Notes: generated by a model from the letters alone, not told the origin. 64,000 bases of DNA from Patescibacteria group bacterium (GCA_040388415.1 JAZKBV010000001.1:138369-202368), one strand, 5' to 3'; numbered from the stretch's first letter, positions 1 to 49,435 are shown. Translations and numbers: made by a program.

Positions 1-951
1 CCTGTCGACATAAGCTCAGGCATCGATCCTTCTGTCCGTTTTATTGGTTCTCATATCAGCGTGTTGAAGCCGGAATTAATCGGTGGTTCGATTCCTGCTC
101 CTGGTGAATATATCGTTCAGGACTGTATGAGGGCAAAAAATTTAAAAGAATTATTTAATGACGCTTCTTCTCCTCAATGGGGGTCAACTTTCACGAGCAT
201 GGGCGCGCTTGTTCCTTATGAGCGTCTAGATGAACTTGTTTCTGAAACTTTGATCTTTTTTGAAAAGATACTTAATGTTAAAAATGAAGATATCAAGATA
301 TCTGTCTCATCTCAGGATCAAGATCTCGTGTCCGCTATCGCAAAAAGCCTTTCGTCGGAATCTTTGGAAGTCGATATGCAGCCGAATTCATACTACAGGC
401 ATCAGATTGGTGTAGAGGGCATCATTGGACGTAATTTTAATCTTGCAATAAGAAATAAAGTCGGCGGAGATTTTTCTGATGTAGGAAATATTATTGTGCT
501 GGAAGATACTGAGAAAAAGCTAGGTGCAGAGTTGGCCCTTGGATCATCAGTGATGCTAAAGCAGATGTATGGTCTAGAACATGTCAATGACTGTTATCCG
601 TTAACTGGGATAGATATTGAAAATAAAACAATAAAAAGGAAATTTGAGGACTGCATTATAGTGAGCATTTCTTTGTTCAATGAAGGGTTAGAGCCAAGAG
701 CAGCAGATAATAAAGGCAGAATCTTACGCTCGTATGTGAGAGCACTAAGTTATTTTAGGTCGAAAGAGAATATGTCATTAGAAAGCCTAGCTGAAATCAT
801 GGCTCGCTTTGAGTCAAAGCGTTATCCGGATAAAAAAGACAGCATCGTTCCGAGTATCGTAGAGTATCTTCGCTCATATGAAGAAATGCTCTTGAGTGAA
901 AAGATATCAACTGCTGAGGATAAAATAATTGCAGCTGTATTAAAGAAGTGA
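1..951 (+). CDS. hypothetical protein, 5'-partial (frame open to window start)
   Basis: ORF 61..951 (296 aa, GTG at 61) has no in-frame stop back to nt 1, so the protein probably continues upstream of the window. No motif recognised. Confidence 0.45.
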   Translation, partial: PVDISSGIDPSVRFIGSHISVLKPELIGGSIPAPGEYIVQDCMRAKNLKELFNDASSPQWGSTFTSMGALVPYERLDELVSETLIFFEKILNVKNEDIKISVSSQDQDLVSAIAKSLSSESLEVDMQPNSYYRHQIGVEGIIGRNFNLAIRNKVGGDFSDVGNIIVLEDTEKKLGAELALGSSVMLKQMYGLEHVNDCYPLTGIDIENKTIKRKFEDCIIVSISLFNEGLEPRAADNKGRILRSYVRALSYFRSKENMSLESLAEIMARFESKRYPDKKDSIVPSIVEYLRSYEEMLLSEKISTAEDKIIAAVLKK

Positions 952-963
952 TAGTCTAAAAAT

Positions 964-1944
964 ATGAAGATTCCTGCAAAACTAAAAAAAGGGTCACATA
1001 TCAGAATCATCGCACCATCAAGAAGCATGGGTCTTTTAAGTCCTGAGTCGAAGACTGAAGCTGTAAAAAGGCTTGAAGAATACGGGTTTGTTTTAAGCTA
1101 CGGAAAGCATGTGAATGAAATAGATGAATTTAGTTCCTCTTCTGTCGCTTCGCGAGTCGCAGATATCCATGAAGCATTTGCTGATAAATCAGTAGATGGT
1201 ATTTTAACTGTTATTGGCGGTTATAATTCGAACCAGCTTCTCGATCATCTTGATTATGATCTATTAGCAAAAAATCCAAAAATATTTTGTGGATTTTCAG
1301 ATATAACAGCGCTTAGCAATGCTATCACCGAAAAATCAAAATTTATCACTTATACAGGGCCGCACTTTTCCAGCTGGGCAATCAAGCATGGTTTTGAATA
1401 TTCTATGGAATATTTTGCCAAGTGTTGCATGTCTAGTGAACCGTATGAGCTTTTGCCTTCAGAAGTTTGGAGCGATGATCCTTGGTTCTTGGATCAAGAG
1501 AAAAGACAGTTCGTCAACAATGAGGGCTATTGGGTCATAAATGAGGGTAATGCAACTGGAAGAACTGTAGGTTCCCATGTTCGGTGCGTAAGTGCTCTTC
1601 AAGGGACCAAGTATTGGCCGTCTTTTAAAGGTGCCATCCTTCTTATGGAGGAAGATTCTGAGGTTAATCCGCAGATTTTTGATCGATTATTGCAGTCGTT
1701 TATACAACAACCAGATTTTTCTGGCGTGAAAGGCATTTTGATCGGCCGTTTTCAGCGGGACTCAAAGATGACAAAAGAGCTTTTGACTAAAATTATATCA
1801 ACTAAGCCAGAATTAAAGGGGGTACCTGTTATTGCAAATATCAATTTTGGCCATACGCTGCCGCTCTCCACGTTGCCGATCGGCGGAGAGATTCAAATGC
1901 TTGCTGAAAAGGGTAAGGCGCAGATCATTGTGACTATGCATTGA
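964..1944 (+). CDS. S66-family serine peptidase (LD-carboxypeptidase LdcA / microcin-C immunity MccF-like)
   Basis: 326 aa. Shows the S66 hallmarks: N-terminal 'IRIIAPS', nucleophile motif 'GFSDITAL', and a C-terminal His/Glu region. Confidence 0.8.
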   Translation: MKIPAKLKKGSHIRIIAPSRSMGLLSPESKTEAVKRLEEYGFVLSYGKHVNEIDEFSSSSVASRVADIHEAFADKSVDGILTVIGGYNSNQLLDHLDYDLLAKNPKIFCGFSDITALSNAITEKSKFITYTGPHFSSWAIKHGFEYSMEYFAKCCMSSEPYELLPSEVWSDDPWFLDQEKRQFVNNEGYWVINEGNATGRTVGSHVRCVSALQGTKYWPSFKGAILLMEEDSEVNPQIFDRLLQSFIQQPDFSGVKGILIGRFQRDSKMTKELLTKIISTKPELKGVPVIANINFGHTLPLSTLPIGGEIQMLAEKGKAQIIVTMH

Positions 1945-1994
1945 TCAATAAAAAAAGTGGGTTGGATAAATCCAACCCACTTGTGCATTTTTCT

Positions 1995-3395
1995 CTAAGC
2001 CTTTAGTTTCGCATCAATATATGCACCCAACTGATCGAGACTTACGCGCTCTTGGCGCATATCGTCTCGATTCCGGATAGTGACCTGCTTTTCCGAAAGG
2101 GTATCATAGTCAACCGTGATGCAATATGGCGTCCCGATTTCGTCTTGACGACGATAGCGTTTTCCGATGTTGCCGCTGTCATCAAACTCGCAGATGTGCC
2201 GCTCACGCAAGTCCTCGTATATTTTACGGGCAACCTGCACAAGCTCTGGACGATTTCTGACAAGAGGGAAGACGGCTACTTTGACAGGTGCCATTTTGGG
2301 GGTGAATTTTAGAACGGTCCGCGTCTCACCCTCAATTTCCTCTTCGTGATAGGCTTCACACAGTATCGCCAGGAATGTTCTGCCGACGCCAACTGACGAT
2401 TCGATAATGTGAGGCGTGTAGCGTTCCGTGGTGCGCTGATCAATGTAGCTCAAATCGGTTCCCGAATGGGTTGTGTGTTGTGTCAGGTCATAATCGCCAC
2501 GGGCGTGTATGCCTTCAAGTTCACTAAAACCAAACGGGAAACGATATTCAATGTCGTATGCTTCCTTTGCGTAGAACACAAGTTTTTCATGTTTGTGCCA
2601 CTGCAAGTTTGAGCTACTGATACCGATCGTCCGATAGTATTCCCAGCGCGCCTGCCGCAGTTTTTCGTATTCGACCATCTCCTGGTCAGGGTGAGTAAAA
2701 TACTGCATTTCCATCTGCTCGAATTCTCGAGTTCTGAAAATAAACTGCCGGGCGGTGATCTCGTTGCGGAACGCTTTTCCGATCTGAGCGATCCCGAAGG
2801 GGATTTTAACCCGATTTGCTGCCAAGACGTTCTTGTAGTTCACGTAGATTCCTTGGCATGTTTCTCCGCGGAGATACACCGGGTCCTTGTTGACGTCCCC
2901 AGTGAAATTTCCAAGGTTTGACTTGACCAAGAGGTTAAATTTCTTTACTTCCGTAAAGTTATTTTTGCCACAAGTAGGGCAGACAATCTTCGCTTTATTT
3001 TCTTGAAACAAAGCGTTGATTTCAGCCACATCCATCTTTTCATCGGCGATGACGCCGATAGTGGCAAGCAAATGGTCCACACGGATGCGTCCATTGCATT
3101 CCTTGCATTCAGCAACCGGATCGGCAAAACCTTTGACGTGTCCGCTCGCTTCCCAAATGCGCGGGCTCATGAAGATGCCTGAGTCCAAGCCGACAATATT
3201 GTCCTGCAGTTGAACCATAGCTCTCCACCACTCGCGCTTTACGGCATTTGCAAGCGCGACGCCGTAATGACCGTAGTCATACACAGCGGCAAATCCGCCG
3301 TATATCTCCGAAGACGGAAAGACGAACCCGCGACGCTTGCAAAACGATACGATCTTGCTGAGTGAAGTGGCTTCATCACTGTTTTTTTGAGTCAT
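1995..3395 (-). CDS. glyQS: glycine--tRNA ligase (dimeric class II, GlyQS type)
   Basis: 466 aa with full-length similarity pattern to GlyRS. The N-terminus 'FVFPSSEIYGG' and class II motifs are present. Confidence 0.9.
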   Translation of the reverse strand: MTQKNSDEATSLSKIVSFCKRRGFVFPSSEIYGGFAAVYDYGHYGVALANAVKREWWRAMVQLQDNIVGLDSGIFMSPRIWEASGHVKGFADPVAECKECNGRIRVDHLLATIGVIADEKMDVAEINALFQENKAKIVCPTCGKNNFTEVKKFNLLVKSNLGNFTGDVNKDPVYLRGETCQGIYVNYKNVLAANRVKIPFGIAQIGKAFRNEITARQFIFRTREFEQMEMQYFTHPDQEMVEYEKLRQARWEYYRTIGISSSNLQWHKHEKLVFYAKEAYDIEYRFPFGFSELEGIHARGDYDLTQHTTHSGTDLSYIDQRTTERYTPHIIESSVGVGRTFLAILCEAYHEEEIEGETRTVLKFTPKMAPVKVAVFPLVRNRPELVQVARKIYEDLRERHICEFDDSGNIGKRYRRQDEIGTPYCITVDYDTLSEKQVTIRNRDDMRQERVSLDQLGAYIDAKLKA

Positions 3396-3495
3396 AAACT
3401 ATCCTTTCATGTTTTGTGCATATGTTGTTTTAAATGTGCTGCACTTGATTTTTAAACTATCATAATAATGGTAACTAGTCAATGTACCTCTCGCT

Positions 3496-4284
3496 CTATT
3501 TTTTCTGGCTAATCACCAAAAAAAGAAACTTACGTTTAGTAAAAAACCGTTCAAAAAATATCGTGAATATTTGTATGAATATTTTAGGTGTCTCAACAAA
3601 TAAAGGGCTGCCGAGGTTATATACCTTAGCAGTGTGAAGCCCGGATCCTAATTGTTTTGCCGCGCTTGAAAGCATGTCTTCTATATCCTTGGGTCCGTAT
3701 ATTTTTTCAGTATCGAGCCTATATCCAGGGATGTGTTTCAGTATTTTTTTAAATCGAGGGCGAGCCAACAGCTCAGCCTTTTTTATGGGGAGAGAATTGA
3801 AATTAGGGATAGCGATTCCTATGTGTCCGCCGATTTTGGTTACGCGCAGCATTTCTTTTAGAATCTGAATAACAAGTTCTTTATCGTAGTGTTCAATTGT
3901 TCCTATGTTCCAAGTCAAATCAAAATTATTATCAGGAAAAGGCATCGAGAACATGTTTCCTTCAACATACGAGACTTTTTTACAACCATGTATCGTTGCT
4001 AATTTTTCTGCCAGTCTAAGTCCTTCAGTAGAAATATCCAGCAATGTTATATTTTTATTCGACAAAGATAATAAAGTCGCTTTTCCAGACCCGCAACCAG
4101 CTTCGAGGATCGATGCATTTGCAGGTATTGATATCGAGTTTACACAATCTCTGATTTGTTCGTAATAGTATCTCCACCAATAGGAAGAAAATTTTTCAGT
4201 AGATTCTCTTGCCAGCTCTTCGGAAAATATTTTATTCCAAGTCCGTTTTTCATGCTCTAAAGCCGCCTTAATTTTTTCCTGCAT
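3496..4284 (-). CDS. class I SAM-dependent methyltransferase
   Basis: Motif I 'ILEAGCGSGKATL' with an acidic post-I 'LLDIS'. The ORF track gives 3496..4395. An internal ATG at 4284 (MQEKIKAALE) removes a 100-bp overlap with the upstream gene and leaves an 11-bp gap, so the two genes look operonic. Confidence 0.75.
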   Translation of the reverse strand: MQEKIKAALEHEKRTWNKIFSEELARESTEKFSSYWWRYYYEQIRDCVNSISIPANASILEAGCGSGKATLLSLSNKNITLLDISTEGLRLAEKLATIHGCKKVSYVEGNMFSMPFPDNNFDLTWNIGTIEHYDKELVIQILKEMLRVTKIGGHIGIAIPNFNSLPIKKAELLARPRFKKILKHIPGYRLDTEKIYGPKDIEDMLSSAAKQLGSGLHTAKVYNLGSPLFVETPKIFIQIFTIFFERFFTKRKFLFLVISQKK

Positions 4285-4294
4285 ATTAATATCG

Positions 4295-5443
4295 TTATGG
4301 TTTCGGCAGATGTTCTCCTCGTGGAATATGCACGGCTTCCCATATATACGGCAGTTTAAGCAGCCACTGAACATAGCGTTGCCATCCCAACCCAAACCCC
4401 GCCGTCGCTTTGTAGTGTTTATAGTCTCTTGTTTTTAGGTAAGGCTCGTAATCCTCAAGCGGCAGATTGAACACTCGTGCTTTTTCAGCTAGCACAGCCG
4501 GTTCGCTGATTCGTACGCCTGACCCAATGACTTCACGGTAGCCCATAAGCACGATGTCAGCATTTTCAGCGATCGATATCCCATCCGTATTTTTTTTAAG
4601 CACATTATGATAAAAGGGGATCTGCAAAATGGGAAAATCTGTAACGGCAACATTTTTACCTAGTAATTCAGTAAGCCTAATCTCCTCCCATCCGCCAAAA
4701 TGCTTAAGTGAAAATTCTTTATAGCGCTCATCTTTTGTATCCGCATAGAGTATCTCCATTGCCTCTTTGAAAGGGATGGTAGATAGATTTTTCTTCTTGA
4801 AAGCATGCTTTAGCTCGCCTATGTCATTTGAGGTTAAAAAATATTCCAAATTCTCTATATTATTTTTTAGCAAATATAAAGTGATATAGTCTAGAATCCC
4901 GTAAGCAATATCAAGATTTTCTTTAAAATCCACCTTTCCTTCAAACTCAACATGCTGGAATTCTGATAAATGCGAGTAGTCGGCTTTTTCTTTCCTGAAA
5001 GAATTATAAATAGAAAAGACTCGATCTACTTTTTTAATGAGAAGTCTTAGTTCTAGATAGAATTGCGAGCTTTCAGATAGGAATGCTTTTTTTGAATTAT
5101 TGAACCATGATATGTCTACAGGCAGGGCGTCAGTGGTGTAATCGAGCGTTTTTCCGGCATATATTTCTCCTGGAGATGAAATCATCATGGTGGTTAGCGG
5201 AAGATTGCACCACTCGGTTTGATGTTTCTTAAAATATTCAGTTACGGCATAAAATATCGCAGTATCTATTTTATGTAAGTGAAAATAGTGCTTGCTAGAA
5301 ACTATCTCATCCATTCTTTTTTCGATGAGATCCAAGTCGAATTGCTTCGAGAGAACATTCTCGATTTTTTTATAGCGCTTGTTTCCTTTATATTCGATAA
5401 TGCGCTTGCCGTCTTTTATTTTTGCAGAATATGGTCCTAACAT
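4295..5443 (-). CDS. class IIb aminoacyl-tRNA-synthetase catalytic-core paralog without anticodon-binding domain (AsnA/AS-AR/EpmA-like amino-acid ligase)
   Basis: 382 aa. Motif 1-like region starts about 50 aa from the N-terminus. Motif 2 is 'FRKEKADYSHLSEFQHVEFE'. The class IIb C-terminal block is 'VTDFP..PFY...ADIVLMGYREVIGSGVRISEP..GFGLGWQRYVQWLL...HIPRGE'. There is no N-terminal OB-fold anticodon-binding domain. Confidence 0.7.
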   Translation of the reverse strand: MLGPYSAKIKDGKRIIEYKGNKRYKKIENVLSKQFDLDLIEKRMDEIVSSKHYFHLHKIDTAIFYAVTEYFKKHQTEWCNLPLTTMMISSPGEIYAGKTLDYTTDALPVDISWFNNSKKAFLSESSQFYLELRLLIKKVDRVFSIYNSFRKEKADYSHLSEFQHVEFEGKVDFKENLDIAYGILDYITLYLLKNNIENLEYFLTSNDIGELKHAFKKKNLSTIPFKEAMEILYADTKDERYKEFSLKHFGGWEEIRLTELLGKNVAVTDFPILQIPFYHNVLKKNTDGISIAENADIVLMGYREVIGSGVRISEPAVLAEKARVFNLPLEDYEPYLKTRDYKHYKATAGFGLGWQRYVQWLLKLPYIWEAVHIPRGEHLPKP

Positions 5444-5559
5444 TGTTTGTGTGCCTATAGACTAGCACAATCTGTTTTTTATACAACAATTGGTAATATG
5501 TCAATACCGGTCATATACAACACCAATTAATATAATGCTATCATCTAGCCATATGAACT
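5444..5559. promoter_or_regulatory. divergent promoter region with two ~20-nt direct repeats
   Basis: 'TTATACAACAATTGGTAATAT' (~5478-5498) and 'CATATACAACACCAATTAATAT' (~5512-5533). The region lies between divergently oriented operons. Confidence 0.4.
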
Positions 5560-6561
5560 GTGGATCACGATACGGCATATTTTCTTAACATGTTTTCATT
5601 ATCTGAGCTAAAGAATGAGTTCTTACTCATCAAAGAATCTTCCTACGAGGGAATAAAGGGAGTTATGGTATTTGATTCAGGTATACCAGGACCATGCCTC
5701 GGCATCACCATTAATACCCACGGCAATGAACCAAGCGGTTTAGCTGCTTTGGGATATTTTCGAAAAGATGATTTGGTCAAAAGCCTCATCAGTGGACGCG
5801 TTATGTTTGTTATAAATAATATTCAAGCGTGCGAGGCCTATTTTAAAGCTCTTGAAATAGAAAATGTATCTGAAAGAGAGACTGCAAAGCTTAAGTCTCG
5901 ATTTTGTGACGTAAATATGAATCGCTTACCAACGAACACGCTTGAACTTTCCGGTGACAAGCGTTACGAGATTCTTCGTGCACAAGAGTTGAGACAAGTG
6001 TGGGAACGGTTTGATATTGCATTTGATGTGCATAGCACTAGAAGCGAATCGGAACCAATGATCATTGCGTTGGGCAATGTGCAAAGCACTTTGTATGCCG
6101 GTTTCCCCATAGGTATAATTATTCGCAATATCGAGAATGTTCAATCAGGAAAACCTGCGTCTGCATTTTATGGTAGGGCAGGTGAAACACCTGTTTTCGC
6201 TATCGAGACCGGCTCTCATGAAAAAGAAACTTCATTTCAGACGGCGATGACATGCATATCTATTCTCTTGCAAAATCTCGGCATGCTTCCGAAAACTTCA
6301 CTGCTAGTGTCAAAAACTTATAAGGAATATTTGATCGTTGATTCAATGTTTTTTCCTGATAATTCGTACGAATTAACTAAAGCATTTAATATGTTTGAAT
6401 TGTGTGAAAAAGGGCAGATCATCGCTCAAGGCAATGGTCCTGCTATCGTAGCGCCTGAGACTGGTTGCCTGTTATTTGTCCCGCCTGGGAAGAAGCCGAC
6501 AGCTCCGCTTGATGAGGAGGTATTATTTTTTTCTGCCCCACCTCGAATAATCAAGGCATAG
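5560..6561 (+). CDS. succinylglutamate desuccinylase/aspartoacylase (AstE/AspA) family zinc deacylase
   Basis: 333 aa. Has the 'INTHGNEPSG' zinc-binding signature of the AstE_AspA family. Confidence 0.75.
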   Translation: MDHDTAYFLNMFSLSELKNEFLLIKESSYEGIKGVMVFDSGIPGPCLGITINTHGNEPSGLAALGYFRKDDLVKSLISGRVMFVINNIQACEAYFKALEIENVSERETAKLKSRFCDVNMNRLPTNTLELSGDKRYEILRAQELRQVWERFDIAFDVHSTRSESEPMIIALGNVQSTLYAGFPIGIIIRNIENVQSGKPASAFYGRAGETPVFAIETGSHEKETSFQTAMTCISILLQNLGMLPKTSLLVSKTYKEYLIVDSMFFPDNSYELTKAFNMFELCEKGQIIAQGNGPAIVAPETGCLLFVPPGKKPTAPLDEEVLFFSAPPRIIKA

Positions 6562-6564
6562 TTT

Positions 6565-7275
6565 ATGGTTAAATTTTTAATTTTACAAAAATGCTATAAT
6601 ACAGCCACCATGAAACTGTATTTCCTTTCGCCGTTCATCCTTCAAAAGATCATTTGGATACCGACTCGTTTCTCACTCTTTTTCTTTGGACACTGGAAGA
6701 TATCAGGCATGGACAACCTCAAAGGCATCCCTGCGCCAGTCATATTTGCATGCAACCATACGAGCGAGATCGATCCTTTTTTTGTACCGGCGTCGCTTCC
6801 ATTTTTATCGCGATTCGCACCTACTTTTTATACGTCTCGTGAAAGCAAGTTTTATACCAACTCGGGTTGGCGCCGCTATATCTATGGGGGATTTTTCTTC
6901 AAGATGTGGGGGTCATATCCAGTGCATGTTGGCTTGAATGATTATGCAAAATCAATGACGCACCATATCGAGATCATCCGAGATGGAGGCAGTCTCTGCA
7001 TGTTTCCTGAGGGGCGCATCACTCCCGATGGGACGATTCAAGCCGCCAAGGGCGGAGTAGCATACCTCTCGCAGGCAACTGGCGCGCTCATCGTTCCTGT
7101 CCGTTTTGAAGGAGCTTTCGGCGTATCTTTGAAAGACCTTTTCTTACGTCGTCGTCACATATCGATTGTATATGGCAAACCGATGAAGCCGACTGACTAT
7201 CTTGGATCTGACCCGATGATCGATGAGCTCAAAAATTATGCCGCCGTGGTGATGGCAGAAGTGGGGAAGTTGTAA
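6565..7275 (+). CDS. plsC: lysophospholipid acyltransferase family protein (PlsC-like)
   Basis: HX4D motif 'ACNHTSEIDPF' and 'FPEGRITPDG'. The start lies 4 nt after the preceding stop, consistent with an operon. Confidence 0.8.
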   Translation: MVKFLILQKCYNTATMKLYFLSPFILQKIIWIPTRFSLFFFGHWKISGMDNLKGIPAPVIFACNHTSEIDPFFVPASLPFLSRFAPTFYTSRESKFYTNSGWRRYIYGGFFFKMWGSYPVHVGLNDYAKSMTHHIEIIRDGGSLCMFPEGRITPDGTIQAAKGGVAYLSQATGALIVPVRFEGAFGVSLKDLFLRRRHISIVYGKPMKPTDYLGSDPMIDELKNYAAVVMAEVGKL

Positions 7276-7334
7276 ACGTTTCTCGTCGCGAACGTGATAT
7301 AATTACCGCGGTTGAAAAACTAATTTCTACTTTT

Positions 7335-8954
7335 ATGATCAGTCAAGAAGCAATACAAAAAATTTTGGGCATAGGTGAACAGGTTGATGTTGACCCGAAA
7401 GATATGGCACGTACGCTCACGATTACTTTTTTTCCTGAAAAAGGCCATATATATAGCAAGAAAGTAAAAGATTTCAGCGACTTGCTCCGCCAGGCGTTGA
7501 TAGATCTGGATGTTAAAGTCATTTCTTATGATGAGTCGTTAGAAACCGTGGCGATCTCTAAGATAGCCAAAAGATTTTTCAAGATATTAGGGAATAATAT
7601 CCTGTTCGCGCTCTATGAAGCTTTGCGGATCTCGCATAATTATCATTACATCAATCTTCTTGCCCTTCAGAACCTTTTGAAGCGTCGCAGGATAAAGAAA
7701 GGAATATCAGTGGTGGCTTTAGGAGAAGGGAAAGTCTATAACCTTCCGATCGACTATACTTCGAGCTTTACCCGAAGCTCAGTCATCACTCTTCTGGATA
7801 GGCCTGCTGATGTCGATGAGACATCGGGCTTCCAGAAGCATTTTGATACAGCGATGGATTCTTTTTCGTACCATATGACACAGATCGTTATACTCGTTGA
7901 TGAAAAGAAATGGATCCTCTATAACTTCAACGCTTCACATCCAGTGTATCCGATCGACTCTCATTTCAAAGAAAATATCCTGCACGCTCTCGTACCGAAA
8001 GTCGCCGCGCCCATCCGTCCGCATCGTATGCCTGATTTTATCATTGATCAAAAGACCTTTGATCCTGAAGCGCCGGAATATGCGACTGCTGTGCAAGATT
8101 TGATAGATGGAGGAATGGCTTTCGAAGGGACTAATCTTTATCCAAAAGGAAAGAAGATGGCTGATCTGCCATTTCGAAATAAATTCTATCGTTGGATAGG
8201 CAGTATCCATCTCGACCATAGAAATGGTATGAGCTATGGTTTTTTGGCGCGACAGCTTCCAACTGAGCTTCCTGCGCTCGAGCCATATAGCCAGGCTTAT
8301 GCAAGCGAAGGCGATTATTTTATCCGCGACGGACATATATATCTCAAACTCGATCTGGCACAAGGAAAGTTTATTCTGCAGGTCCCACCGATCTGGGTTA
8401 TGACGCAGCGATCTGGTGCTGACAAGACTCATATAGACATACATAAGGACCTCCTTATGCTGGGTTTGGTGGATGGCAAGATGCGCATGCGCACACCAGA
8501 TGGACTGAAGCTCACTGCCGATTATAAGCCTTCATTCGATACTAAAGTCATCCTCGCACATGCAGTCGGCAATGCGATCACAGCTGCGATCATGAATCAT
8601 TTCCAGTCTAACGCCGAGTATGTGAAAAATGTCCGCGAAAATGGCCTTGCGATCGCGCATTGGCACGGGTATTTCCATCCGCAACATATTCCAAAAGGCT
8701 GGTATCACCATGGCTATGGCAATCCGCATGTAGCATGTTCGACGCCGCAATCAGCGATTTTTGCTTTGGATGGAAAGCTCAACACATTTGAGAAGGCCAT
8801 GAAAGAAGGCGCAGATTATCATGGCGACATCCATATAGAGCCGCATCATGGTACAAACATCGTATTTCCTTCAGTCAAGGAGCTTGGTCGGCTGCTCATG
8901 GAAAATCCTGAAGCTTCTGTTCTTGGAAATAAGTATCTTGGGTATTATAATTAA
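7335..8954 (+). CDS. hypothetical protein, 539 aa, His-rich C-terminal region
   Basis: Long ORF with no recognised family. The C-terminus reads 'HWHGYFHPQHIPKGWYHHGYGNPH...HGDIHIEPHHG'. Only a 7-nt gap separates it from the downstream histidine kinase. Confidence 0.6.
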   Translation: MISQEAIQKILGIGEQVDVDPKDMARTLTITFFPEKGHIYSKKVKDFSDLLRQALIDLDVKVISYDESLETVAISKIAKRFFKILGNNILFALYEALRISHNYHYINLLALQNLLKRRRIKKGISVVALGEGKVYNLPIDYTSSFTRSSVITLLDRPADVDETSGFQKHFDTAMDSFSYHMTQIVILVDEKKWILYNFNASHPVYPIDSHFKENILHALVPKVAAPIRPHRMPDFIIDQKTFDPEAPEYATAVQDLIDGGMAFEGTNLYPKGKKMADLPFRNKFYRWIGSIHLDHRNGMSYGFLARQLPTELPALEPYSQAYASEGDYFIRDGHIYLKLDLAQGKFILQVPPIWVMTQRSGADKTHIDIHKDLLMLGLVDGKMRMRTPDGLKLTADYKPSFDTKVILAHAVGNAITAAIMNHFQSNAEYVKNVRENGLAIAHWHGYFHPQHIPKGWYHHGYGNPHVACSTPQSAIFALDGKLNTFEKAMKEGADYHGDIHIEPHHGTNIVFPSVKELGRLLMENPEASVLGNKYLGYYN

Positions 8955-8960
8955 GCAGTC

Positions 8961-10577
8961 ATGCTCTCTATCTTCAGTTACTACAGCCTCTCTCTGTTTT
9001 TGGGAGGAATCGTAGCTCTCTTCTCGGGCATATTTGTATTTCTCAATAACTCCAAGAAAATGGAAAGCATCGTTTGGTTGCTTTTGACCATTTCGACGGC
9101 GATCTGGAGCTTTGGATACTACATCATGATCATTACTCCGGACAAGCACGTTGCTTGGATCAGCGATGTCATTTTGCATATCGGCGCATCATTCATACCT
9201 TTCTTCTATCTTTTCTTTATAATAGCCATTACGAATGTCTTCGGGCAGTATAAGAAACTCATTTACTGCCTGTCTCCAATAGCGATCTTTTTTGTGCTTG
9301 TGACGCCAAGCTCATTATTTGTTACTGATGTATATCAAAAAGGACCATTCAGTTATGCTCCTAATGCTGGGATACTTTATACGCCATTCACGGCTTATTT
9401 CTTTATAGTAGTTATAATCGCTTTGGCCATATTGCTCATTCAGATCAAGAAATCTGAGCGCAAAGAGGCGCTTCGCCTAAAATTCATCTTCGGGTCGTCG
9501 ATCTTCGGTTTCATTGGCGGCAGCAGCGTTTTCTTTCTAACGTTCAATGTCTTCGTACCGCCATTTCCTGTCATACTATTCGCTTTTTATCCGATGATCA
9601 TCGCATATGCAGTGCTACGCTATAATCTTTTTGACGTAAGAATAATCACGGCAGAATTGCTCACTGCGACGATTTGGATCACTCTTTTGTTCCGTACAGT
9701 TCTTTCAAATAATGGCACCGACCAGGTCATTAGCGGTATCATTCTCGCGATTACAGTCTTGTTCGGTATCTGGCTTGTGCGAAATGTATACCACGAGATC
9801 ACTCAACGCGAAAAGATCGAGAAGCTCGCCAAAGACCTCGAATCTGCCAATGTCCGCCTGACTGAGCTCGATCGCCAAAAGTCAGAGTTCGTCTCATTTG
9901 CGACGCATCAGCTCCGCGCGCCACTCACCGCAATGAAAGGCTATGCCTCGATGATCCTCGATGGCGATATGGGTAAGCTGGCCGATGAGGCCAAGCTCGG
10001 CGTATCGCGCATATACGACTCAGCCCAGACGCTCACCAACATCGTCGACGATTATCTCAACATCACACGCATCGAGCTCGGTACGATGAAGTATGCTTTT
10101 GAGACGATCAACTGGCGCACCCTTATCGATGATATCCTCGCTGAGCTCAAGCCGAATATCGAAAAGTCGAAGCTCGCTTTCTCATTCAATGTTCAAGAAG
10201 AGAATATGGATTATCGCATCACTGCTGACCGCGACAAGTTCAAACAAGTCATCGCCAACCTCATCGACAACTCGATGAAATATACGCCGAAGGGTACAGT
10301 GGCGCTGTCGCTTTCGTTCGACCGCGCGCGTCGCAAGTACGTCTTTATGATCAAAGATACCGGCATCGGCATCGCTCCTGAAGTCTTGCCGCATCTCTTC
10401 GCTAAGTGGAGCCGTGCAGGTAATGCTAACAAGACGAATATCAAAGGCACTGGTCTCGGCCTTTTCGTGGCAAAAGAGATCATTACTGCGCATCATGGCG
10501 AAGTCCGTGCAGAATCTCCTGGCGAAGGGAAGGGCTCAACATTCATCGTGGAGATGGAGCCATTTGGGAAAATGTAA
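8961..10577 (+). CDS. sensor histidine kinase, multi-pass membrane
   Basis: About 6 N-terminal TM helices. HisKA H-box 'ATHQLRAPLTAM'. HATPase N/G boxes 'NLIDNSMKYT', 'DTGIGI' and 'GTGLGL'. Confidence 0.85.
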   Translation: MLSIFSYYSLSLFLGGIVALFSGIFVFLNNSKKMESIVWLLLTISTAIWSFGYYIMIITPDKHVAWISDVILHIGASFIPFFYLFFIIAITNVFGQYKKLIYCLSPIAIFFVLVTPSSLFVTDVYQKGPFSYAPNAGILYTPFTAYFFIVVIIALAILLIQIKKSERKEALRLKFIFGSSIFGFIGGSSVFFLTFNVFVPPFPVILFAFYPMIIAYAVLRYNLFDVRIITAELLTATIWITLLFRTVLSNNGTDQVISGIILAITVLFGIWLVRNVYHEITQREKIEKLAKDLESANVRLTELDRQKSEFVSFATHQLRAPLTAMKGYASMILDGDMGKLADEAKLGVSRIYDSAQTLTNIVDDYLNITRIELGTMKYAFETINWRTLIDDILAELKPNIEKSKLAFSFNVQEENMDYRITADRDKFKQVIANLIDNSMKYTPKGTVALSLSFDRARRKYVFMIKDTGIGIAPEVLPHLFAKWSRAGNANKTNIKGTGLGLFVAKEIITAHHGEVRAESPGEGKGSTFIVEMEPFGKM

Positions 10578-10579
10578 GC

Positions 10580-10612
10580 GTAACACGAATCTACGAATAA
10601 ACGCACGAATAC
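10580..10612. repeat. ACGAAT tandem-repeat element (copy 1)
   Basis: 'aCACGAATctACGAATaaacgcACGAATac'. Near-identical to 54771-54800 and related to 40245-40262. Confidence 0.5.
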
Positions 10613-10654
10613 GGTCGGCGCTCAAAGGACGTTGCGCCGACATGATTTCGCTAA
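10613..10654. repeat. 35-nt conserved intergenic element 'AAAGGACGTTGCGC.GACATGATT..C...AATCAAAAA' (copy 1)
   Basis: Matches 48825-48862 (after pepF) with few mismatches. In both places it is followed by a hairpin. Confidence 0.5.
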
Positions 10655-10682
10655 ATCAAAAAGCCCCGAACAGTGCGTTCGG
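10655..10682. terminator. intrinsic terminator hairpin (A-tract/hairpin, serves convergent genes)
   Basis: 'aaaaaGCCCCGAACagtgcGTTCGGGGtgtgtt'. Confidence 0.6.
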
Positions 10683-10688
10683 GGTGTG

Positions 10689-11207
10689 TTAGGTGCTCTC
10701 CAATGGAGGTTTGGTCGGACATATCTCGCGTCGGCTGCTCGTTTCAGCATAGTGAGGCGCACCTGGTGGCTCTTCAGACGTCTCTCTACAAGCTGGAGGA
10801 CAAGAGAATCCTTTCTGTCCACGCCTCCATCGTCGAGCTGAAGCAGGTGGCGGAGATGGCGGTTCAGTTTGAGCTGGAGGATTCAAGATGCTTTCCATGC
10901 CCAGCTGCCGACGAGCGATGGTTGCTTTAACAGATCGCTTATCAGACTCCTTTTTCTTCTTTTGCAAAAAGGCTGTCCGATAACGTGCTCGCCTTTCTGT
11001 CGGCGTCTCTAGCTTTTTTTCAGTCCGAGGAACGTCAAGCAAGTTTTCGCTCGGTTTGGCCGGCTGTTGAAACGGCGGCTGAGTAGGAATATTCCACACT
11101 ATCGGCTTTTGGGTGCGGTCGCGTCGGGCGGCCTTTCCGATAAAACTAAAAACTAACAGGGCTCCGATCACGATCACGAGCCCGCAGATATTTTTTACAA
11201 TATTCAT
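10689..11207 (-). CDS. hypothetical membrane-anchored, Pro/Lys-rich low-complexity protein
   Basis: N-terminal TM helix 'ICGLVIVIGALLVFSFIG', then a disordered Pro-rich tail. The stop codon abuts the hairpin at 10655-10682. The C-terminal third overlaps plus-strand ORF 10673..10930, so the true extent is uncertain. Confidence 0.45.
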   Translation of the reverse strand: MNIVKNICGLVIVIGALLVFSFIGKAARRDRTQKPIVWNIPTQPPFQQPAKPSENLLDVPRTEKKLETPTERRARYRTAFLQKKKKESDKRSVKATIARRQLGMESILNPPAQTEPPSPPPASARRWRRGQKGFSCPPACRETSEEPPGAPHYAETSSRREICPTKPPLEST

Positions 11208-11265
11208 GGCAAATGAGATAAAGTTTCAGGCGCCGATCCGAAGAAAGGCGCCTGGGTTGAATCAT

Positions 11266-11586
11266 TCAGCAGTCACGACGCGTGACCCATGGCCGGCGAT
11301 CGGAATCCAACGGACTCCGGCGCGGACGAATCTGGACTTCTTCAGCATCGTGCCGAGTGAAGGTGAAGGGGATCGGTGTCATCTTGCTGTGACCGAATTG
11401 TCCCCGACGAAACTGCTTGTGAACCATGACGACGGAGATCATTTGATCGAGAGTTTTTGGCTCCTTTACAAAATATTTTCCCGCCTCGATGGATATGATG
11501 CCTTCGTAATTGAGCCTGTTCAGCATCGCCCATTGCCGTTCACCGGCAGGGGTGATTATTTGTTGACGAATCAGATGTGCGGGCAT
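11266..11586 (-). CDS. hypothetical protein
   Basis: 106-aa ORF with no family recognised. Confidence 0.45.
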   Translation of the reverse strand: MPAHLIRQQIITPAGERQWAMLNRLNYEGIISIEAGKYFVKEPKTLDQMISVVMVHKQFRRGQFGHSKMTPIPFTFTRHDAEEVQIRPRRSPLDSDRRPWVTRRDC

Positions 11587-11669
11587 AAAGTTCCTTTCGG
11601 TTGATGGTTTAAAGGTTCAGGTTACTTGATACCATTATAGCACCTTTTAGCTATATTTGTCAAATGATT

Positions 11670-12137
11670 TTATGAGGTAGAAACCAGTTCATCTACAGCC
11701 TTTTTTACCATCATGCCGTCGGCCTTGCCTGCAAGCTCTTTTATGAGCATACCGACGATTTTGCCGGTCGCTTTCGGGTCAAATCCGCCTTGAGACTTGA
11801 GTGCATCGACGCGTGTACGAACGATTATTTTCACTTCATCATATGACATCATCGCAGGCATGAATGATTCGAGGATGATGAGCTCGGCTTTTTCTTTTGA
11901 TACGAGGTCTGTGCGTCCGCCTTTTTCGAATTGTTCAATAGAATCTCTGTGCTGTTTGACGCTTCTCTTGATGATGGCCATAACTTTGTCGTCTGCAAGG
12001 AAATCACCGGCAATGTTTCCAGACATCATTTCGTTCAAAGCGAGAGCGTTCAGGCCACGGAGCGTGTCGAGGCGTATAGTGTCTTTGGCGCGGAGAGCAT
12101 CCTTGATCTGTTCTTTGATTGTTTGGTGGAGGGTCAT
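11670..12137 (-). CDS. yqeY: GatB/YqeY domain protein
   Basis: 155 aa. The N-terminus 'IKEQIKDALRAKDTIRLDTLRGL' and overall pattern are typical of the YqeY family. Confidence 0.85.
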   Translation of the reverse strand: MTLHQTIKEQIKDALRAKDTIRLDTLRGLNALALNEMMSGNIAGDFLADDKVMAIIKRSVKQHRDSIEQFEKGGRTDLVSKEKAELIILESFMPAMMSYDEVKIIVRTRVDALKSQGGFDPKATGKIVGMLIKELAGKADGMMVKKAVDELVSTS

Positions 12138-26427: not shown

Positions 26428-26517
26428 ATAGGATCCTTTCTCGTTGTGGTTTTTTGTTTGAAGCGTTTGTGTGAATGAAACTTGCGAACCGTCCGTCAAT
26501 ACCATACTCTTAGCATC

Positions 26518-27789
26518 ATGATCAGTCAACAGGTCAAAAAACTCGATATCCCTGAGCTTCCTGGCGTCTATATCTTCAGGGATTATCAGAAGCGCCCGCT
26601 CTATATCGGTCGCGCCACTTCGCTTAAGGATCGCACCAGGAGCTATTTTAGTAATGATCTCATCGAGACTCGAGGACCACGCATCGTCGATATGGTCACC
26701 AAAGCAAAGACGCTGACATGGGAAACGACCGACTCCGTTCTTGAAGCTATCATCCTTGAAAGTGCCCTTATCAAAAAATATCAGCCCCACTACAATGTCG
26801 ATGAGCGTGATGATAAGAGCTCATACTATGTCGTCATAACCAAAGAAGAATGGCCACGGGTATTCCTTGCACGCGCCCGTGATTTTGATGCTAAAAGATC
26901 CGGCGATGTATTCGATGATGGGAAGACGAGTTACAAAGTAAAAGCTGTCTTTGGCCCGTATGTGCATTCAGGTCTGATCAAAGAGGCTCTTAAAATCCTC
27001 CGTAAAATGTTTCCATTCAAGGACGTGAAGTCATTTGATGCGCGGCACAACTCTTTCTATGAAGCGCTTGGTCGGTCACCAAAGGGAACTGATGACAATT
27101 CAAAACGTCGCTATCAACGCACCATCGCCAACCTCATTCTTTTCTTTGAGGGAAAAAAGAAGCTCCTGCAAGCAAAGCTCCAGAGAGATATGAATATGTA
27201 TGCCAAGAAGATGGAATTTGAAGAAGCGCAAAAGGCGAAGAGGCTTATCTATGCGCTTGACCACGTGAATGATATGGCGTTAATAAAAGAAGAAAAAAAC
27301 ACCATGAGGCCTGCCGGCGGCGGACAAGGATCACAGGAAGCAACGCACAGAGATTTCCGTATGGAGGCCTATGACGTTGCACATCTCTCTGGCACCAATG
27401 TTGTCGGTGCATTTGCCGTGATGGTTGACGGGGAGTTTGATAAGAGCCAGTACCGAAAATTTATTTTATCTTCGCAAGAGAATAATGATGTGAAAAATTT
27501 GAGAGAGATTTTGACTCGCAGGCTTAATCATACAGAGTGGGCTTTCCCTGATCTAATTGTCGTAGATGGAGGTGAAGCTCAGTTGAATGCAGCGAAAGAA
27601 ATTTTATCTGCACGGCGCATCTCAATTCCTATTGTAGGTCTTGTTAAAGATGAGCGTCATAAGGCTCGAATGATTATCGGTGACTTTGAAGCATTTAAGG
27701 AAAAGGCGCGCGACATAGTTCGGCTCAATGAAGAGACGCATCGATATACGATCGCATTTCATAAAAAGAGGAGAGGGAAGTTGGTGTAA
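26518..27789 (+). CDS. uvrC: excinuclease ABC subunit C, short form lacking C-terminal (HhH)2 domain
   Basis: GIY-YIG 'LPGVYIFRD...PLYIGRATSLKDRTRSYF'. UVR motif 'MEFEEAQKAKRLIYAL'. RNase H-like endonuclease domain 'YDVAHLSGTNVVGAFAV'. The protein ends right after the endonuclease domain. Confidence 0.8.
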   Translation: MISQQVKKLDIPELPGVYIFRDYQKRPLYIGRATSLKDRTRSYFSNDLIETRGPRIVDMVTKAKTLTWETTDSVLEAIILESALIKKYQPHYNVDERDDKSSYYVVITKEEWPRVFLARARDFDAKRSGDVFDDGKTSYKVKAVFGPYVHSGLIKEALKILRKMFPFKDVKSFDARHNSFYEALGRSPKGTDDNSKRRYQRTIANLILFFEGKKKLLQAKLQRDMNMYAKKMEFEEAQKAKRLIYALDHVNDMALIKEEKNTMRPAGGGQGSQEATHRDFRMEAYDVAHLSGTNVVGAFAVMVDGEFDKSQYRKFILSSQENNDVKNLREILTRRLNHTEWAFPDLIVVDGGEAQLNAAKEILSARRISIPIVGLVKDERHKARMIIGDFEAFKEKARDIVRLNEETHRYTIAFHKKRRGKLV

Positions 27790-35180: not shown

Positions 35181-38100
35181 ATGATTATCCCCATGAATAA
35201 AGACGCGAAATACGATCCGGCCAAGATAGAAAAGAAATGGCAGAAGAAGTGGACCAAGGATAAGCTCTATCAGTCAAAAGAAGACCCAAAGAAAGAAAAA
35301 TTCTTTGTGCTCGACATGTTTCCATATCCGTCTGGTGAAGGACTGCACGTCGGCCACCCAAAGGGTTATATCGCCACCGATATCATCTCTCGTTTTCAGC
35401 GCATGCACGGCAAGTCTGTCTTGCACCCGATGGGCTTTGATGCCTTCGGTTTGCCTGCTGAGAACTATGCCATCAAGATGAAAAAGAATCCGATGGATTT
35501 GACTGAGGTGAATGTGAATAGGTTTAAAGAACAATTAGAGATCATTGGTCTTGACTATGATTGGTCACGTGAGGTCAATACAACTGATCCTGCATATTAC
35601 ACGTGGACGCAGTGGATCTTTTTGCAGTTGTATAAAAAAGGTTTGGCATACGAATCATTTGAGCCGATCAACTGGTGTCCTGTCGACAAGACCGGTTTGG
35701 CAAACGAGGATGTCGTCGATGGTCGTTGTGAACGTTGTGGAACGCTCGTGGAGAAGAGGCCGATGCGCCAGTGGGTCCTCAAGATTACTGATTATGCAGA
35801 TCGATTGTTGCAGGACTTGGATATGGTACGTGCGCCAGTGTTTACCAACACTGTTGGTTCAGATGCATTTCGTAAAGATATGCCAGTGAGCGAGCGTCAC
35901 GTTGTTCACTGTCTCATCAAGCATTGGAGCGAAGACAAATATTTGTGCATGAAGTGGAAGAAAAATGATTGGCGTGGTTTTGTCATCGGTGGTATCGAAG
36001 ATGGTGAGTCTGCCGAGACGACTGCTATCCGCGAAGTGATGGAAGAGACTGGGTATAAAAATGTTGTTTTCAAGAAAATCGTCGGCACGATGACTGCAGA
36101 GTTCTATCAGCAGATCAAAAAGGAAAATCGCCGTGCGTTCATTACAACTGTATATCTTGAACTTCAGAATGGCGAGCAAAGTGACGTGCCTCAACATGAA
36201 AAAGATATTCAAGATATGGAATGGGTGCCTGCTGCTCAGGTCCGTGATTTTGTGAACAGAGATGATCTCAAATATGAATGGGATGTCTTTACGGGTGCAG
36301 TAAAGCAGGCCCCGTTATTGGATTGGCCCGCATCTATCAAAGAAGCTCAGCGAAATTGGATCGGCAAATCAGAGGGTGCAGAAATAGAATTTACATTGAA
36401 GTTGGCAAATAATAAGCCTCGCTTTGTGCTGATTCATGGATATAAAGAAAGTCCACAAGAGGGATATCTCCCTTGGCTCAAAAAAGAACTCGAGAAGCGT
36501 GGTCATGAAGTGCAGGTTCCTGAATTGCCAAATCCTGCGAATCCAAAAGAGTCTGAGCAAGTAGACTATGTCATCAATAACTGCACTATCGATGAGAATA
36601 CGGTCATCGTTGCACATAGTCTCGGCGGTGTAGTTGCTCAAAAAGTTATTATGAAATTGAACAAGCAGATTTCAGGACTTGTTCTCGTTGGCAACGCAAT
36701 CACCCCAGGTTTTTCAAAAGATACAAAGTCGCGTCCATTCCACAAAAACTTCACCTGGGATTTTGACTATGCGCGCATCAACAAGCTCGCACAAGGAAGA
36801 GTCGCAGTTCTCTCTGATACAAAAGAGATTCATCGCAGTGCTTTTTTGAAAGATCTAGCGACAAAATTGTCAGCAGCTTTCATTGAAGTAGATGCAGTCA
36901 AAGAGCACTTCAATGGTTCAGAGGAGCCTGCAGTTTTGAAGTGTGTCACGCCGACAGTCAGTGTGTTCACCACACGTCCCGATACGATCTTTGGTGTTAC
37001 GTACATCGTCCTTGCTCCTGAACATCCATGGGTAAGTGAATTATTGCCACAGTTGGAGAATGGATCAGAAGTCGAAGCATACGTTGCGCAAGCTAAGCTT
37101 GCCACCGAGATCGAGCGCACTGATGCAAAGAAGGAAAAGACTGGTGTTGAGCTCAAGGGTATCAAGGCAACCAATCCAGCCAATGGCGAAGAAGTACCCG
37201 TATGGATCGCTGACTATGTTCTCGCAGACTACGGTACTGGCGTTGTCATGGCTGTGCCTGCGCATGATGAAAGAGACTTTGCTTTTGCAAAGAAGTTTGG
37301 GTTGGGAGTGAAGCAAGTTGTTGCTCCGCTTATTACTCGTACAGGCGATGAAGATGCATGGAGAGCACATGAACCAGAAGCTAAAAGACCGACTGTTGTG
37401 TGTATTGTTAAACATTGGTCAGATGATAAGTATCTTTTTATAAAGAAAAAAATTCTTGATAAAGCGGTTGTTGCGATTGCTGGCGGTATCGACGGGGAGG
37501 ACACTGTTCAGGCGGGTCAACGTGAGATTCGTGAAGAATCTGGGTATCTCAATACAAAGTTTGTGAGAGATTTGGGCACCCCCGTTTATTATCGATTTTA
37601 TTCAATTACCGGCAAACAGAATCGCATCTCTGAATTGAGGCCGCTTTATTTTGAATTGGTTGATGGTGAAAGAGAAGAGATGTCGGAAAATGAGAAGCAA
37701 CAGCATGAAGAACTATGGCTTTCAAAAGAGGAAATTGATCAATATCTGAAAGGAAGACTATTCAATCCTATTTTTTGGAATCGTCTCAATAATTCTCAGG
37801 AGGCATTTACTGAAGCTGGTATTGTCATCAATTCAGGAAAATTTGACGGTAAAGCATCTGATTCAGTCAAAAAAGACATCACCCTCTCAGTCGGCGGACA
37901 ATGGGTTTCAAAATATAAACTGCGCGACTGGGTTTTCTCACGCCAGCGCTATTGGGGAGAACCAATACCGCTCATTCATTGTAAGAAGTGCGGGGTAGTT
38001 GCTGTACCTGAAAAAGATCTGCCGGTGAAGCTACCAAAGGTGAAGTCATATGAGCCAACAGGCACGGGCGAATCTCCGCTCGCTGATATCCATAAATGGG

Positions 38101-49318: not shown

Positions 49319-49435
49319 AGGGAATCCTTTCAGTTGTTCAAAATAAATATAGATTACTTTTTATATTTTGTCAAACTTCATTTTTTGAGTGAAAATCATT
49401 TTGAAAAAACGGCATATTTTGCTACACTTGCACAC

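Follow-up and report, generated by a model that had tools for sequence, protein, structure and literature searches.

An AgnA-like, anticodon-domain-less AsnRS-type core with conserved methyltransferase and MccF-clade partners in Patescibacteria

The core gene and its partners at the locus

We analysed a 64,000-nucleotide stretch of DNA from a Patescibacteria group bacterium (GCA_040388415.1, JAZKBV010000001.1:138369-202368; hereafter the window, with positions counted from its first letter). The gene of interest encodes a stand-alone, 382-residue catalytic core of the asparaginyl-tRNA synthetase (AsnRS) type. It is followed by a gene for a class I S-adenosylmethionine (SAM)-dependent methyltransferase-fold enzyme, and an S66 serine peptidase and a second synthetase-like core, of the alanyl-tRNA synthetase (AlaRS) type, are encoded nearby (Table 1). 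A first-pass annotation had proposed that the core forms an operon with the methyltransferase and has a tRNA-independent, small-molecule role. The proposal is supported by what follows, and among the roles then listed an aminoacyl-nucleotide-like metabolite fits best. That annotation overlooked the precedent set by AgnA and AgnB1 of the agrocin 84 system, as well as the AlaRS-like core at the start of the window.

Table 1. Genes and features at and around the core locus of the window
Feature	Position	Strand	Remarks
AgnA-like, anticodon-domain-less AsnRS-type adenylate-forming core (putative)	4295..5443	-	382 aa
Class I SAM-dependent methyltransferase-fold enzyme	3496..4284	-	262 aa; Methyltransf_25/11, E 6e-17
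S66 serine peptidase of the MccF clade	964..1944	+	326 aa; Peptidase_S66 N- and C-terminal domains
AlaRS-like catalytic-core paralog, 3' 316 codons	1..951	+	full protein P0121, 364 aa
Canonical dimeric-type GlyRS	1995..3395	-	NF003211, 605 bits vs cut-off 312
Hairpin of a bidirectional intrinsic terminator where the S66 and GlyRS genes converge	1955..1982	.	12-bp stem, T-runs on both strands
Gap between the core and the divergently transcribed AstE-like gene	5444..5559	.	sequence read
AstE/AspA-like zinc deacylase, divergent from the core	5560..6561	+	other gene callers start later, 298 aa

The open reading frame (ORF) of the core carries the class II motif 2 ('FRKEKADYSHLSEFQHVEFE', residues 149-168) and the C-terminal blocks that had been reported for it. 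Pfam PF00152 (tRNA-synt_2) matched residues 114-375 with an E value of 5e-30, and residues 47-376 aligned to positions 123-445 of the 451-position NCBIfam asnS model. The scores on the canonical AsnRS models were below the cut-offs, with 140 vs 414 bits for TIGR00457 and 129 vs 343 bits for NF003037. The top sequence match in the PDB was an AsnRS (5zg8, E 3e-17). An AlphaFold2 model built on 61 homologs had a pLDDT of 90 and a pTM of 0.91, and its top Foldseek matches in the PDB were the AsnRS structures 9sh8 and 1x54. In the fold ranking the AsnRS of T. thermophilus and P. horikoshii came first and archaeal aspartyl-tRNA synthetase (AspRS) next; the archaeal asparagine synthetase 3p8t was absent from the top 50 fold matches.

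About 50 residues had been counted ahead of motif 1 by the first-pass annotation, which took the protein to lack an anticodon-binding domain. The count was off, as around 90 residues precede the motif-1 proline P91 and homology to the AsnRS hinge and catalytic domain sets in after 46, but the loss of the anticodon-binding domain held. Besides the asnS alignment, the AlphaFold2 model shows residues 1-73 as a beta-hairpin and two helices, with no oligonucleotide/oligosaccharide-binding (OB) fold. A hidden or frameshifted anticodon domain was also looked for and none was found: the core is preceded by a gap of 116 bp and then by a divergent gene, which leaves no coding space for one, and the full-length members of the family are 360-420 aa long.

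To map residues, HMMER alignments to AsnRS structures were laid over the conservation in the 61 homologs. R150, E152, H158, F162, E166, D296, E304, R311 and R356 were invariant or nearly so, and the same was true of S125 and Q127 in a QSxQ element. P91 and L130 were invariant in the family, which retains class II motifs 1-3 and the residues of the Asn pocket. R150 and R356 are the motif-2 and motif-3 arginines, and D296 and E304 are ligands of magnesium. E166 and R311 correspond to E228 and R364 of the P. horikoshii enzyme, and L130 sits at the position of the AspRS lysine (K198) that reads the Asp carboxylate. The class IIb 'EG' segment, which holds the alpha-amino group, is replaced by D/N101-Y102 in the core; this region is the least confident part of the AlphaFold2 model. 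From this pattern of residues we read the core as a probably active adenylate-forming enzyme in which the handling of the amino end of the substrate would be altered.

The core terminates with a TAA codon at 4297..4295, and 10 intergenic nucleotides separate it from the ATG of the methyltransferase at 4284. This start, the one favoured by the first-pass annotation, is preferred over a TTG at 4395 because gene predictions made independently for two further assemblies of this organism also give 262 aa and because homolog alignments begin at residue 2 of the protein. The earlier assignment to the class I SAM methyltransferases stood as well.

The window S66 peptidase, in which the catalytic Ser112 motif GFSD and FGHT were aligned, matched the B. 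anthracis 'MccF-like' protein BA_5613 in the PDB with 379 bits, BaMccF with 131, E. coli MccF with 107 and LdcA with 47. For the majority-type S66 (locus L004) the scores were 182 bits to BA_5613, 147-160 to MccF and 26-59 to LdcA. By these scores both tested subtypes belong to the MccF clade and not to the LdcA murein carboxypeptidases, and a reading of the S66 gene as a peptidoglycan-recycling enzyme was dropped on this ground.

The AlaRS-like gene begins 144 nt before window position 1 and its frame is open to that position (the ORF called at 61..951 runs off the start of the window). Directly before it, just outside the window, lies an HD phosphohydrolase gene, as seen in L033/L034. The profile of the AlaRS-like family matched AlaRS in the PDB at E 4e-9, and the AlphaFold2 model of the protein (pLDDT 93) had AlaRS catalytic fragments as its top Foldseek matches (E 7e-15, TM 0.67-0.71). 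The four module genes have a GC content of 0.37-0.405 vs 0.465 +/- 0.028 for the other large ORFs of the window. Neither a leader RNA nor a short ORF for a precursor peptide was found in 5444..5559; the region does contain a TTGACA...TATAAA pair with a short spacer, to which a promoter scan gave no score. An Rfam search over 1..12000 had no match at all, neither a T-box nor a riboswitch that would reveal the amino acid.

A conserved accessory module and its wider relatives

The distribution of the core family was determined by scanning two invariant peptides against 185,579 species genomes, only 29 of which contained it. The members share 50-75% mutual identity and come nearly all from records of the candidate phyla radiation (CPR)/Patescibacteria. 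Several records of metagenome-assembled genomes carry doubtful taxonomic labels. ORFs were then called and clustered in a sample of 30 loci, made up of 29 GTDB loci and the window. The pairing of the core with the methyltransferase proved to be conserved in relatives: a methyltransferase was found within 2 kb of the core in 29/30 loci, and in 24/30 it came immediately after the core in the same orientation. An S66 gene lay within 4 kb in 28/30 loci, the contigs of the other two ending too early, so the link to an MccF-like peptidase that the first-pass annotation had suspected is a conserved one. The trio of core, methyltransferase and S66 thus occurs in 28-29 of 30 loci that are otherwise non-syntenic and whose flanks are otherwise unrelated. 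The AstE/AspA-like gene, which had been pointed out together with the S66 gene as a neighbour, is present in the window but lies outside the conserved module, as it was not beside the core family in any other locus examined.

An extra class II synthetase-like gene was found in 22 of the 30 loci, and its types are mutually exclusive. AlaRS-like genes (~364 aa) occur in five loci including the window, weakly HisRS-like genes (~380 aa) in nine, divergent LysRS-like genes that keep the OB fold in six, and ProRS-like paralogs in two. The HisRS likeness consists of one weak Pfam match, and the profile of this type gave nothing significant against the PDB. The LysRS-like paralogs (L029 9084..11841; L006, L007, L008, L011 and L013) are 414-444 aa long and reach about half the LysRS cut-off score. 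In L029 the paralog adjoins a canonical LysRS gene, and in L006, L008 and L013 it is followed by a 300-aa radical-SAM gene. In a Pfam census of 118 neighbouring genes, class II synthetase domains were the most frequent, and no transporter family was among the 25 most frequent families.

The methyltransferase and S66 of the window are 38-75% identical to those of the other AlaRS-like-type loci vs ~30% to those of the other types, whereas the core is uniformly conserved across module types. Because the identity of the methyltransferase and S66 follows the type of the second synthetase-like gene while that of the core does not, the partners co-vary with the second gene. Within this accessory module, which is horizontally mobile, no gene is as well conserved as the core. 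Variant CPR modules contain additional enzymes. An S-adenosylmethionine (AdoMet) decarboxylase gene can stand directly before the methyltransferase-fold gene and a pyridoxal phosphate (PLP)-dependent decarboxylase gene of the Orn/Arg type after the S66 gene, with one or the other decarboxylase beside the transferase in L020, L024 and L005. ATP-grasp ligases, a PhyH dioxygenase (L028), APH kinases, HAD hydrolases and HD proteins are also encoded in variant modules.

The same partners were found beside a different core family of ~372 aa, which is 25-26% identical to the window core. At these loci the identities to the window proteins are 53-66% for S66, 37-43% for the methyltransferase and 46-48% for the AlaRS-like protein. 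One such locus, in another CPR genome, has the order HD, methyltransferase, AlaRS-like, S66 and core. Another lies on a contig of 438 kb on which NCBI assigns the methyltransferase to Bipolaricaulota; a HinT-like HIT gene and a further methyltransferase gene follow immediately downstream. The chromosome of Bradyrhizobium sp. Pa8, which has a genome of 9.5 Mb, carries S66, the 372-aa core, a HAD phosphatase and the methyltransferase without an AlaRS-like gene. The window methyltransferase is 37-55% identical to those of AlaRS-like-type modules when the Bradyrhizobium and Bipolaricaulota-labelled loci are included. The Bradyrhizobium copy (L038, CP176767.1 2373815-2390603) has nodU and a remnant of nodS as neighbours, a setting that suggests a symbiosis island, and related S66 genes are present on plasmids of B. 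elkanii and B. barranii. In the 6.1-Mb genome of Draconibacterium, a third kind of core, of the AgnA type, is accompanied by AlaRS-like, S66 and PurD-like ATP-grasp genes. The setting of the Draconibacterium module is a mobile or defence island, with an insertion-sequence (rve) transposase, a Fic gene and the genes of an ABC-3C-type conflict system (CTD10, MC6/MC7, DUF2326) nearby (L030 11633..14541).

In an exhaustive profile search, the relatives next in rank were mostly anticodon-less cores of 320-360 aa, together with several fusions. P0331 in L036 is a genuine fusion of methyltransferase and core and is followed by an overlapping S66 gene. Other relatives are fused to a RimL-type GNAT, or to a HIT domain with an Asparaginase_2 gene preceding, and a chytrid encodes a fusion of Asparaginase_2, HIT and core. 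A 667-aa protein that looks like a fusion of core and methyltransferase, P0061, was not used, as the invariant C-terminal IWEA.HIPRG motif of the core is lost at its junction and a frameshift artefact is the best reading. Eukaryotic records with Asparaginase_2, HIT and an AsnRS-like core (P0306, P0289 and P0401) come from a chytrid, Fusarium and a fish gene model; the Fusarium protein has 842 aa and is annotated 'Asparagine--tRNA ligase'. A single protein, P0221 (520 aa), has a GNAT acetyltransferase at the N-terminus of an AlaRS-like core.

Relation to agrocin 84 and proposed function

A tblastn search of a module S66 against plasmids pointed to agnC5, annotated 'MccF-like', on pAgK84 of Rhizobium rhizogenes K84. 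On this plasmid agnA is followed by the SAM methyltransferase gene agnB1 and then by agnB2, which encodes a resistant leucyl-tRNA synthetase (LeuRS); agnC6 (PhyH) is also present. AgnA, a 353-aa protein annotated 'Agrocin84-synthetase', is homologous to AsnRS but truncated, with no anticodon domain, and has been proposed to join a pentanamide precursor to AMP via a phosphoramide bond (PMC8323819, PMC4392301). AgnA shares 26% identity with the window core over 335 aa (E 6e-32) and 43% with the Draconibacterium core, here over the full length (E 9e-105); its identity to members of the 372-aa family is 31-33% and to the fused forms 37-43%. AgnB1 is homologous to the methyltransferase in 13 loci at 30-42% identity, five of them CPR loci with 36-42% over the full length. 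AgnC5 is 27% identical to the window S66 (E 3e-36) and matches 34 loci at 27-41%. In a neighbour-joining tree, a simple one, the window family and AgnA grouped to the exclusion of canonical AsnRS in 93/100 bootstraps. These comparisons place the window core and AgnA in one clade of cores that lack the anticodon domain, and the agrocin 84 cluster is the closest known system.

The gene order of the window, with core, methyltransferase and glycyl-tRNA synthetase (GlyRS), mirrors the order agnA, agnB1 and agnB2. A gap of 100 nt separates the GlyRS gene from the methyltransferase gene upstream of it, and the only predicted terminator, at 1955..1982, comes after GlyRS. With a GC content of 0.49, however, GlyRS is native to the genome, vs the low values of the module genes, and it adjoins the module only in the window and L001. 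Its membership of the module is uncertain; it looks like a native housekeeping gene and not like a second, resistant copy. The system differs from agrocin 84 in that the window core belongs to a separate, CPR-centred 382-aa family and in that the locus includes an AlaRS-like core and an HD hydrolase instead. The pentanamide genes (agnC1-C4 and C7), the genes for the opine moiety (agnD-F) and the exporter gene agnG have no counterpart in the modules. The PhyH dioxygenase of L028 recalls agnC6 by type but is an unrelated gene, and hhalign found no relation of the HisRS-like and AlaRS-like profiles to AgnC1.

The module also resembles the microcin C system in several respects. MccF, MccE2 (a GNAT) and MccH (a HIT protein) act on aminoacyl-nucleotide mimics (PMC8323819, PMC4392301) and represent the three known enzyme types, S66, GNAT and HIT, that disarm such compounds (PMC8323819). 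MccD has a class I methyltransferase fold and, together with a decarboxylase, adds an aminopropyl group to the phosphate of microcin C (PMC8323819). In the module, the S66 proteins score 107-160 bits to MccF vs 26-59 bits to LdcA, variant modules have a decarboxylase beside the transferase like MccE1, and core relatives occur as fusions with a RimL-type GNAT (cf. MccE2) and with HIT (cf. MccH). The SAM-dependent transferase of the module has a class I methyltransferase fold, as MccD does, but no specific similarity to MccD. Both systems appear to centre on the chemistry of Asn/Asp and AMP. A difference is that the adenylating enzyme of the module is derived from a synthetase, and no counterpart of the MFS exporter of microcin C was found, no transporter family being among the 25 most frequent in the neighbouring genes.

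On balance we favour, with modest confidence, the interpretation that the AgnA-like core module carries out the tRNA-independent synthesis of an acyl- or aminoacyl-adenylate mimic. The substrates, the product, the formation of an N-P bond and the role of each partner we infer as follows. From bound ATP and an acyl substrate, Asn/Asp-like or other, the core would form an acyl-adenylate, which would be converted to a carboxamide or to an N-acyl phosphoramidate link to AMP, as proposed for AgnA. Such a product would imitate an aminoacyl-adenylate but resist hydrolysis. The methyltransferase-fold enzyme may decorate the scaffold, in the way MccD acts on the microcin C phosphate, and the AdoMet and PLP decarboxylases next to it in some variants suggest an alkylation of the phosphate as in microcin C. 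Because it is conserved together with the core in the absence of the agrocin side-chain genes, the methyltransferase is likely part of the core chemistry. The MccF-type S66 would cleave the acyl-N bond, either for self-immunity or for maturation. The variable second synthetase-like gene may set the amino acid that is mimicked or supplied; where its tRNA-binding domain is kept, it could alternatively be a resistant spare like AgnB2.

A number of observations weigh against this interpretation. The window methyltransferase is only 24% identical to AgnB1, so that the agreement between these two is positional only, and MccD showed no meaningful similarity to it (E 0.002). None of agnC1-C4, C6, C7, D, E, F and G had a tblastn match in any module locus. 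The deep groupings of the tree are moderate, with all truncated cores together in 84/100 bootstraps. Neither MccB/ThiF nor an exporter is among the 25 most frequent neighbour families, and an MccA-like mini-ORF ending in Asn was sought in 5444..5559 upstream of the core, where no MccA-type precursor peptide was found. The core family is known from sequence only, and the AgnA reaction is itself a proposal. In addition, the pocket of the core is of the AsnRS type (E166, R311, L130) and the hidden Markov models (HMMs) of the archaeal asparagine synthetase AS-AR (PRK06462; 3p8t) give it 100 bits, which makes the chemistry of an amide synthetase possible.

This last point leads to an alternative that we regard as unlikely but the strongest competitor, in which the core is an AS-AR- or SlgZ-like amide synthetase that amidates an Asp-type carboxylate and, with the methyltransferase, yields a modified amino acid and no nucleotide. 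The second synthetase-like or ATP-grasp enzyme would then build a dipeptide, which the S66 enzyme would trim as a carboxypeptidase. AS-AR is likewise an anticodon-domain-less, tRNA-independent AsnRS/AspRS-type core, the AS-AR HMMs give 134-242 bits to sister cores, and the AsnRS-like pocket and the relatives fused to or beside Asparaginase_2, a family of isoaspartyl peptidases, are in line with such an activity. The AsnRS-like SlgZ and the methyltransferase SlgM are moreover documented as a pair in streptolydigin biosynthesis (PMC5357945), an example of the joint use of the two enzyme types in natural-product synthesis that we liken to the module by description, not by sequence. On the other hand, all AS-AR scores are far under the cut-offs of 309-389 bits. 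The first-pass annotation had named AsnA and the archaeal enzyme as precedents, and with 100 bits against an equivalog cut-off of 389 the AsnA-like reading fails for the window core. The score by itself cannot separate the readings because AgnA reaches 199 bits on the same model. The alignment to 3p8t, a protein of 294 aa vs 382 aa for the core, covers only core residues 290-380, and plain asparagine synthesis leaves the methyltransferase and S66 module unexplained. SlgZ and SlgM reportedly act in a tetramic-acid pathway of the polyketide synthase-nonribosomal peptide synthetase (PKS-NRPS) type, and we know of no S66 partner for them. No NRPS or PKS was among the 25 most frequent neighbour families, the S66 partners group with MccF instead of LdcA, and partners of the HIT, RimL-type GNAT, HD and HAD kinds suggest a compound that contains a nucleotide or phosphate.

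Synthesis of an adenylate mimic was further weighed against the possibility that nothing is made and that the locus is a protection island, in which S66 hydrolyses and the methyltransferase inactivates aminoacyl-adenylate mimics and the truncated cores are decoys or spares. MccF homologs are often stand-alone resistance genes, full-length divergent LysRS- or ProRS-like copies stand beside the module in 8 loci in the manner of agnB2, and no exporter was found in the census of neighbouring genes. However, the adenylation residues, which a decoy would not need, are all invariant in the core, the closest characterised relative is AgnA, the agrocin 84 synthetase for which a biosynthetic function is proposed, and the ATP-grasp ligases, decarboxylases and dioxygenase of the variant modules look biosynthetic. 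We therefore consider a protection island improbable.

Somewhat less probable still is a modifier of a protein or tRNA, with the methyltransferase finishing the modification. Truncated class II paralogs such as EpmA and GluQRS act as modifiers. EpmA/PoxA, the lysyl ligase of elongation factor P (EF-P), is like the core in being a class IIb core without an anticodon domain, GluQRS glutamylates queuosine, and the majority-type methyltransferase has a weak CmoM-like match of 51 bits. EpmA is derived from LysRS, however, and its HMM gives the window core 20 bits vs a cut-off of 287, which speaks against the EpmA-like role that had also been raised at first. No gene of the EF-P/EpmB type is among the frequent neighbours, the module is rare, patchy and of foreign base composition, and a modifier role accounts neither for the MccF-type amidase, which is obligatory, nor for the variable synthetase-like partner.

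That the core is a minimal housekeeping AsnRS charging tRNA(Asn) without an anticodon domain is hardly credible: some records annotate members as 'asparagine--tRNA ligase', the Asn-pocket residues are kept, the family is coherent at the identities given above and neither a canonical AsnRS nor GatCAB was found among the tested large ORFs of the 64-kb window, but there is no OB fold, the family was found in only 29 of the 185,579 species genomes, its genes lie in tight operons with non-translation genes and have a low GC content, homologous modules occur in the large genomes of Bradyrhizobium and Draconibacterium, and the family groups with AgnA and not with AsnRS.

Beyond the synthesis of an adenylate mimic by the module itself, a wider proposal can be put forward, on which we are more doubtful. 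CPR bacteria, and sporadically a Bipolaricaulota-labelled contig, the region next to nodU in Bradyrhizobium and Bacteroidota, might carry diversified clusters resembling those of agrocin and microcin C that are built from recycled class II cores and make phosphoramidate nucleotides, mimics of aminoacyl-adenylates, without MccB or a ribosomal peptide, the second gene (Ala-, His-, Lys- or Pro-type) setting which synthetase of the host is hit.

The rest of the window and the wider significance

Outside the module, the window consists of ordinary CPR housekeeping genes, such as those for DnaB, UvrA, UvrC, Zwf, LeuRS and AlaRS. A PADLOC search with six module proteins returned only a generic methyltransferase match. 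The LeuRS gene (35181..39095, plus strand) is unusually long at 1304 aa and is matched by the leuS model in four pieces; weak Nudix-like matches at ~261-359 suggest a large insertion, possibly a Nudix domain. The UvrC-like protein (26482..27789, plus strand; 435 aa) aligns to the uvrC model only up to about its midpoint, and the AlaRS (49334..51352, plus strand) is shortened to 672 aa and is of the short PRK01584 type. A 539-aa ORF without a Pfam or NCBIfam match (7335..8954, plus strand) lies between genes for an acyltransferase and a 7TM histidine kinase.

The use of a truncated AsnRS paralog in the synthesis of a nucleotide antibiotic is a kind of system described already in 2006. In our literature search we did not find the CPR-centred core family described, nor a minimal trio resembling agnA, agnB1 and agnC5 with swappable synthetase-derived partners and a spread across phyla. 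The previously known loci resembling the agrocin 84 genes were only one cluster in Ensifer and a few actinobacterial clusters. The occurrence of the trio across dozens of CPR genomes and several phyla, without the agrocin-specific genes, suggests that the trio is the core chemistry and that the methyltransferase is integral to it rather than a side-chain tailoring enzyme. The copy in Bradyrhizobium sp. Pa8 places the module in a culturable organism. The finding also bears on annotation: NCBI calls P0022 and P0051 'asparagine--tRNA ligase' and JGI calls many members aspartyl/asparaginyl-tRNA synthetase, names that distort the reconstruction of metabolism. The genomes of CPR bacteria are very small and contain few recognised biosynthetic clusters, yet these bacteria may make inhibitors of tRNA synthetases. 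If the wider proposal is true, these genome-reduced episymbionts would have a chemical weapon or a means to control the translation of their hosts.

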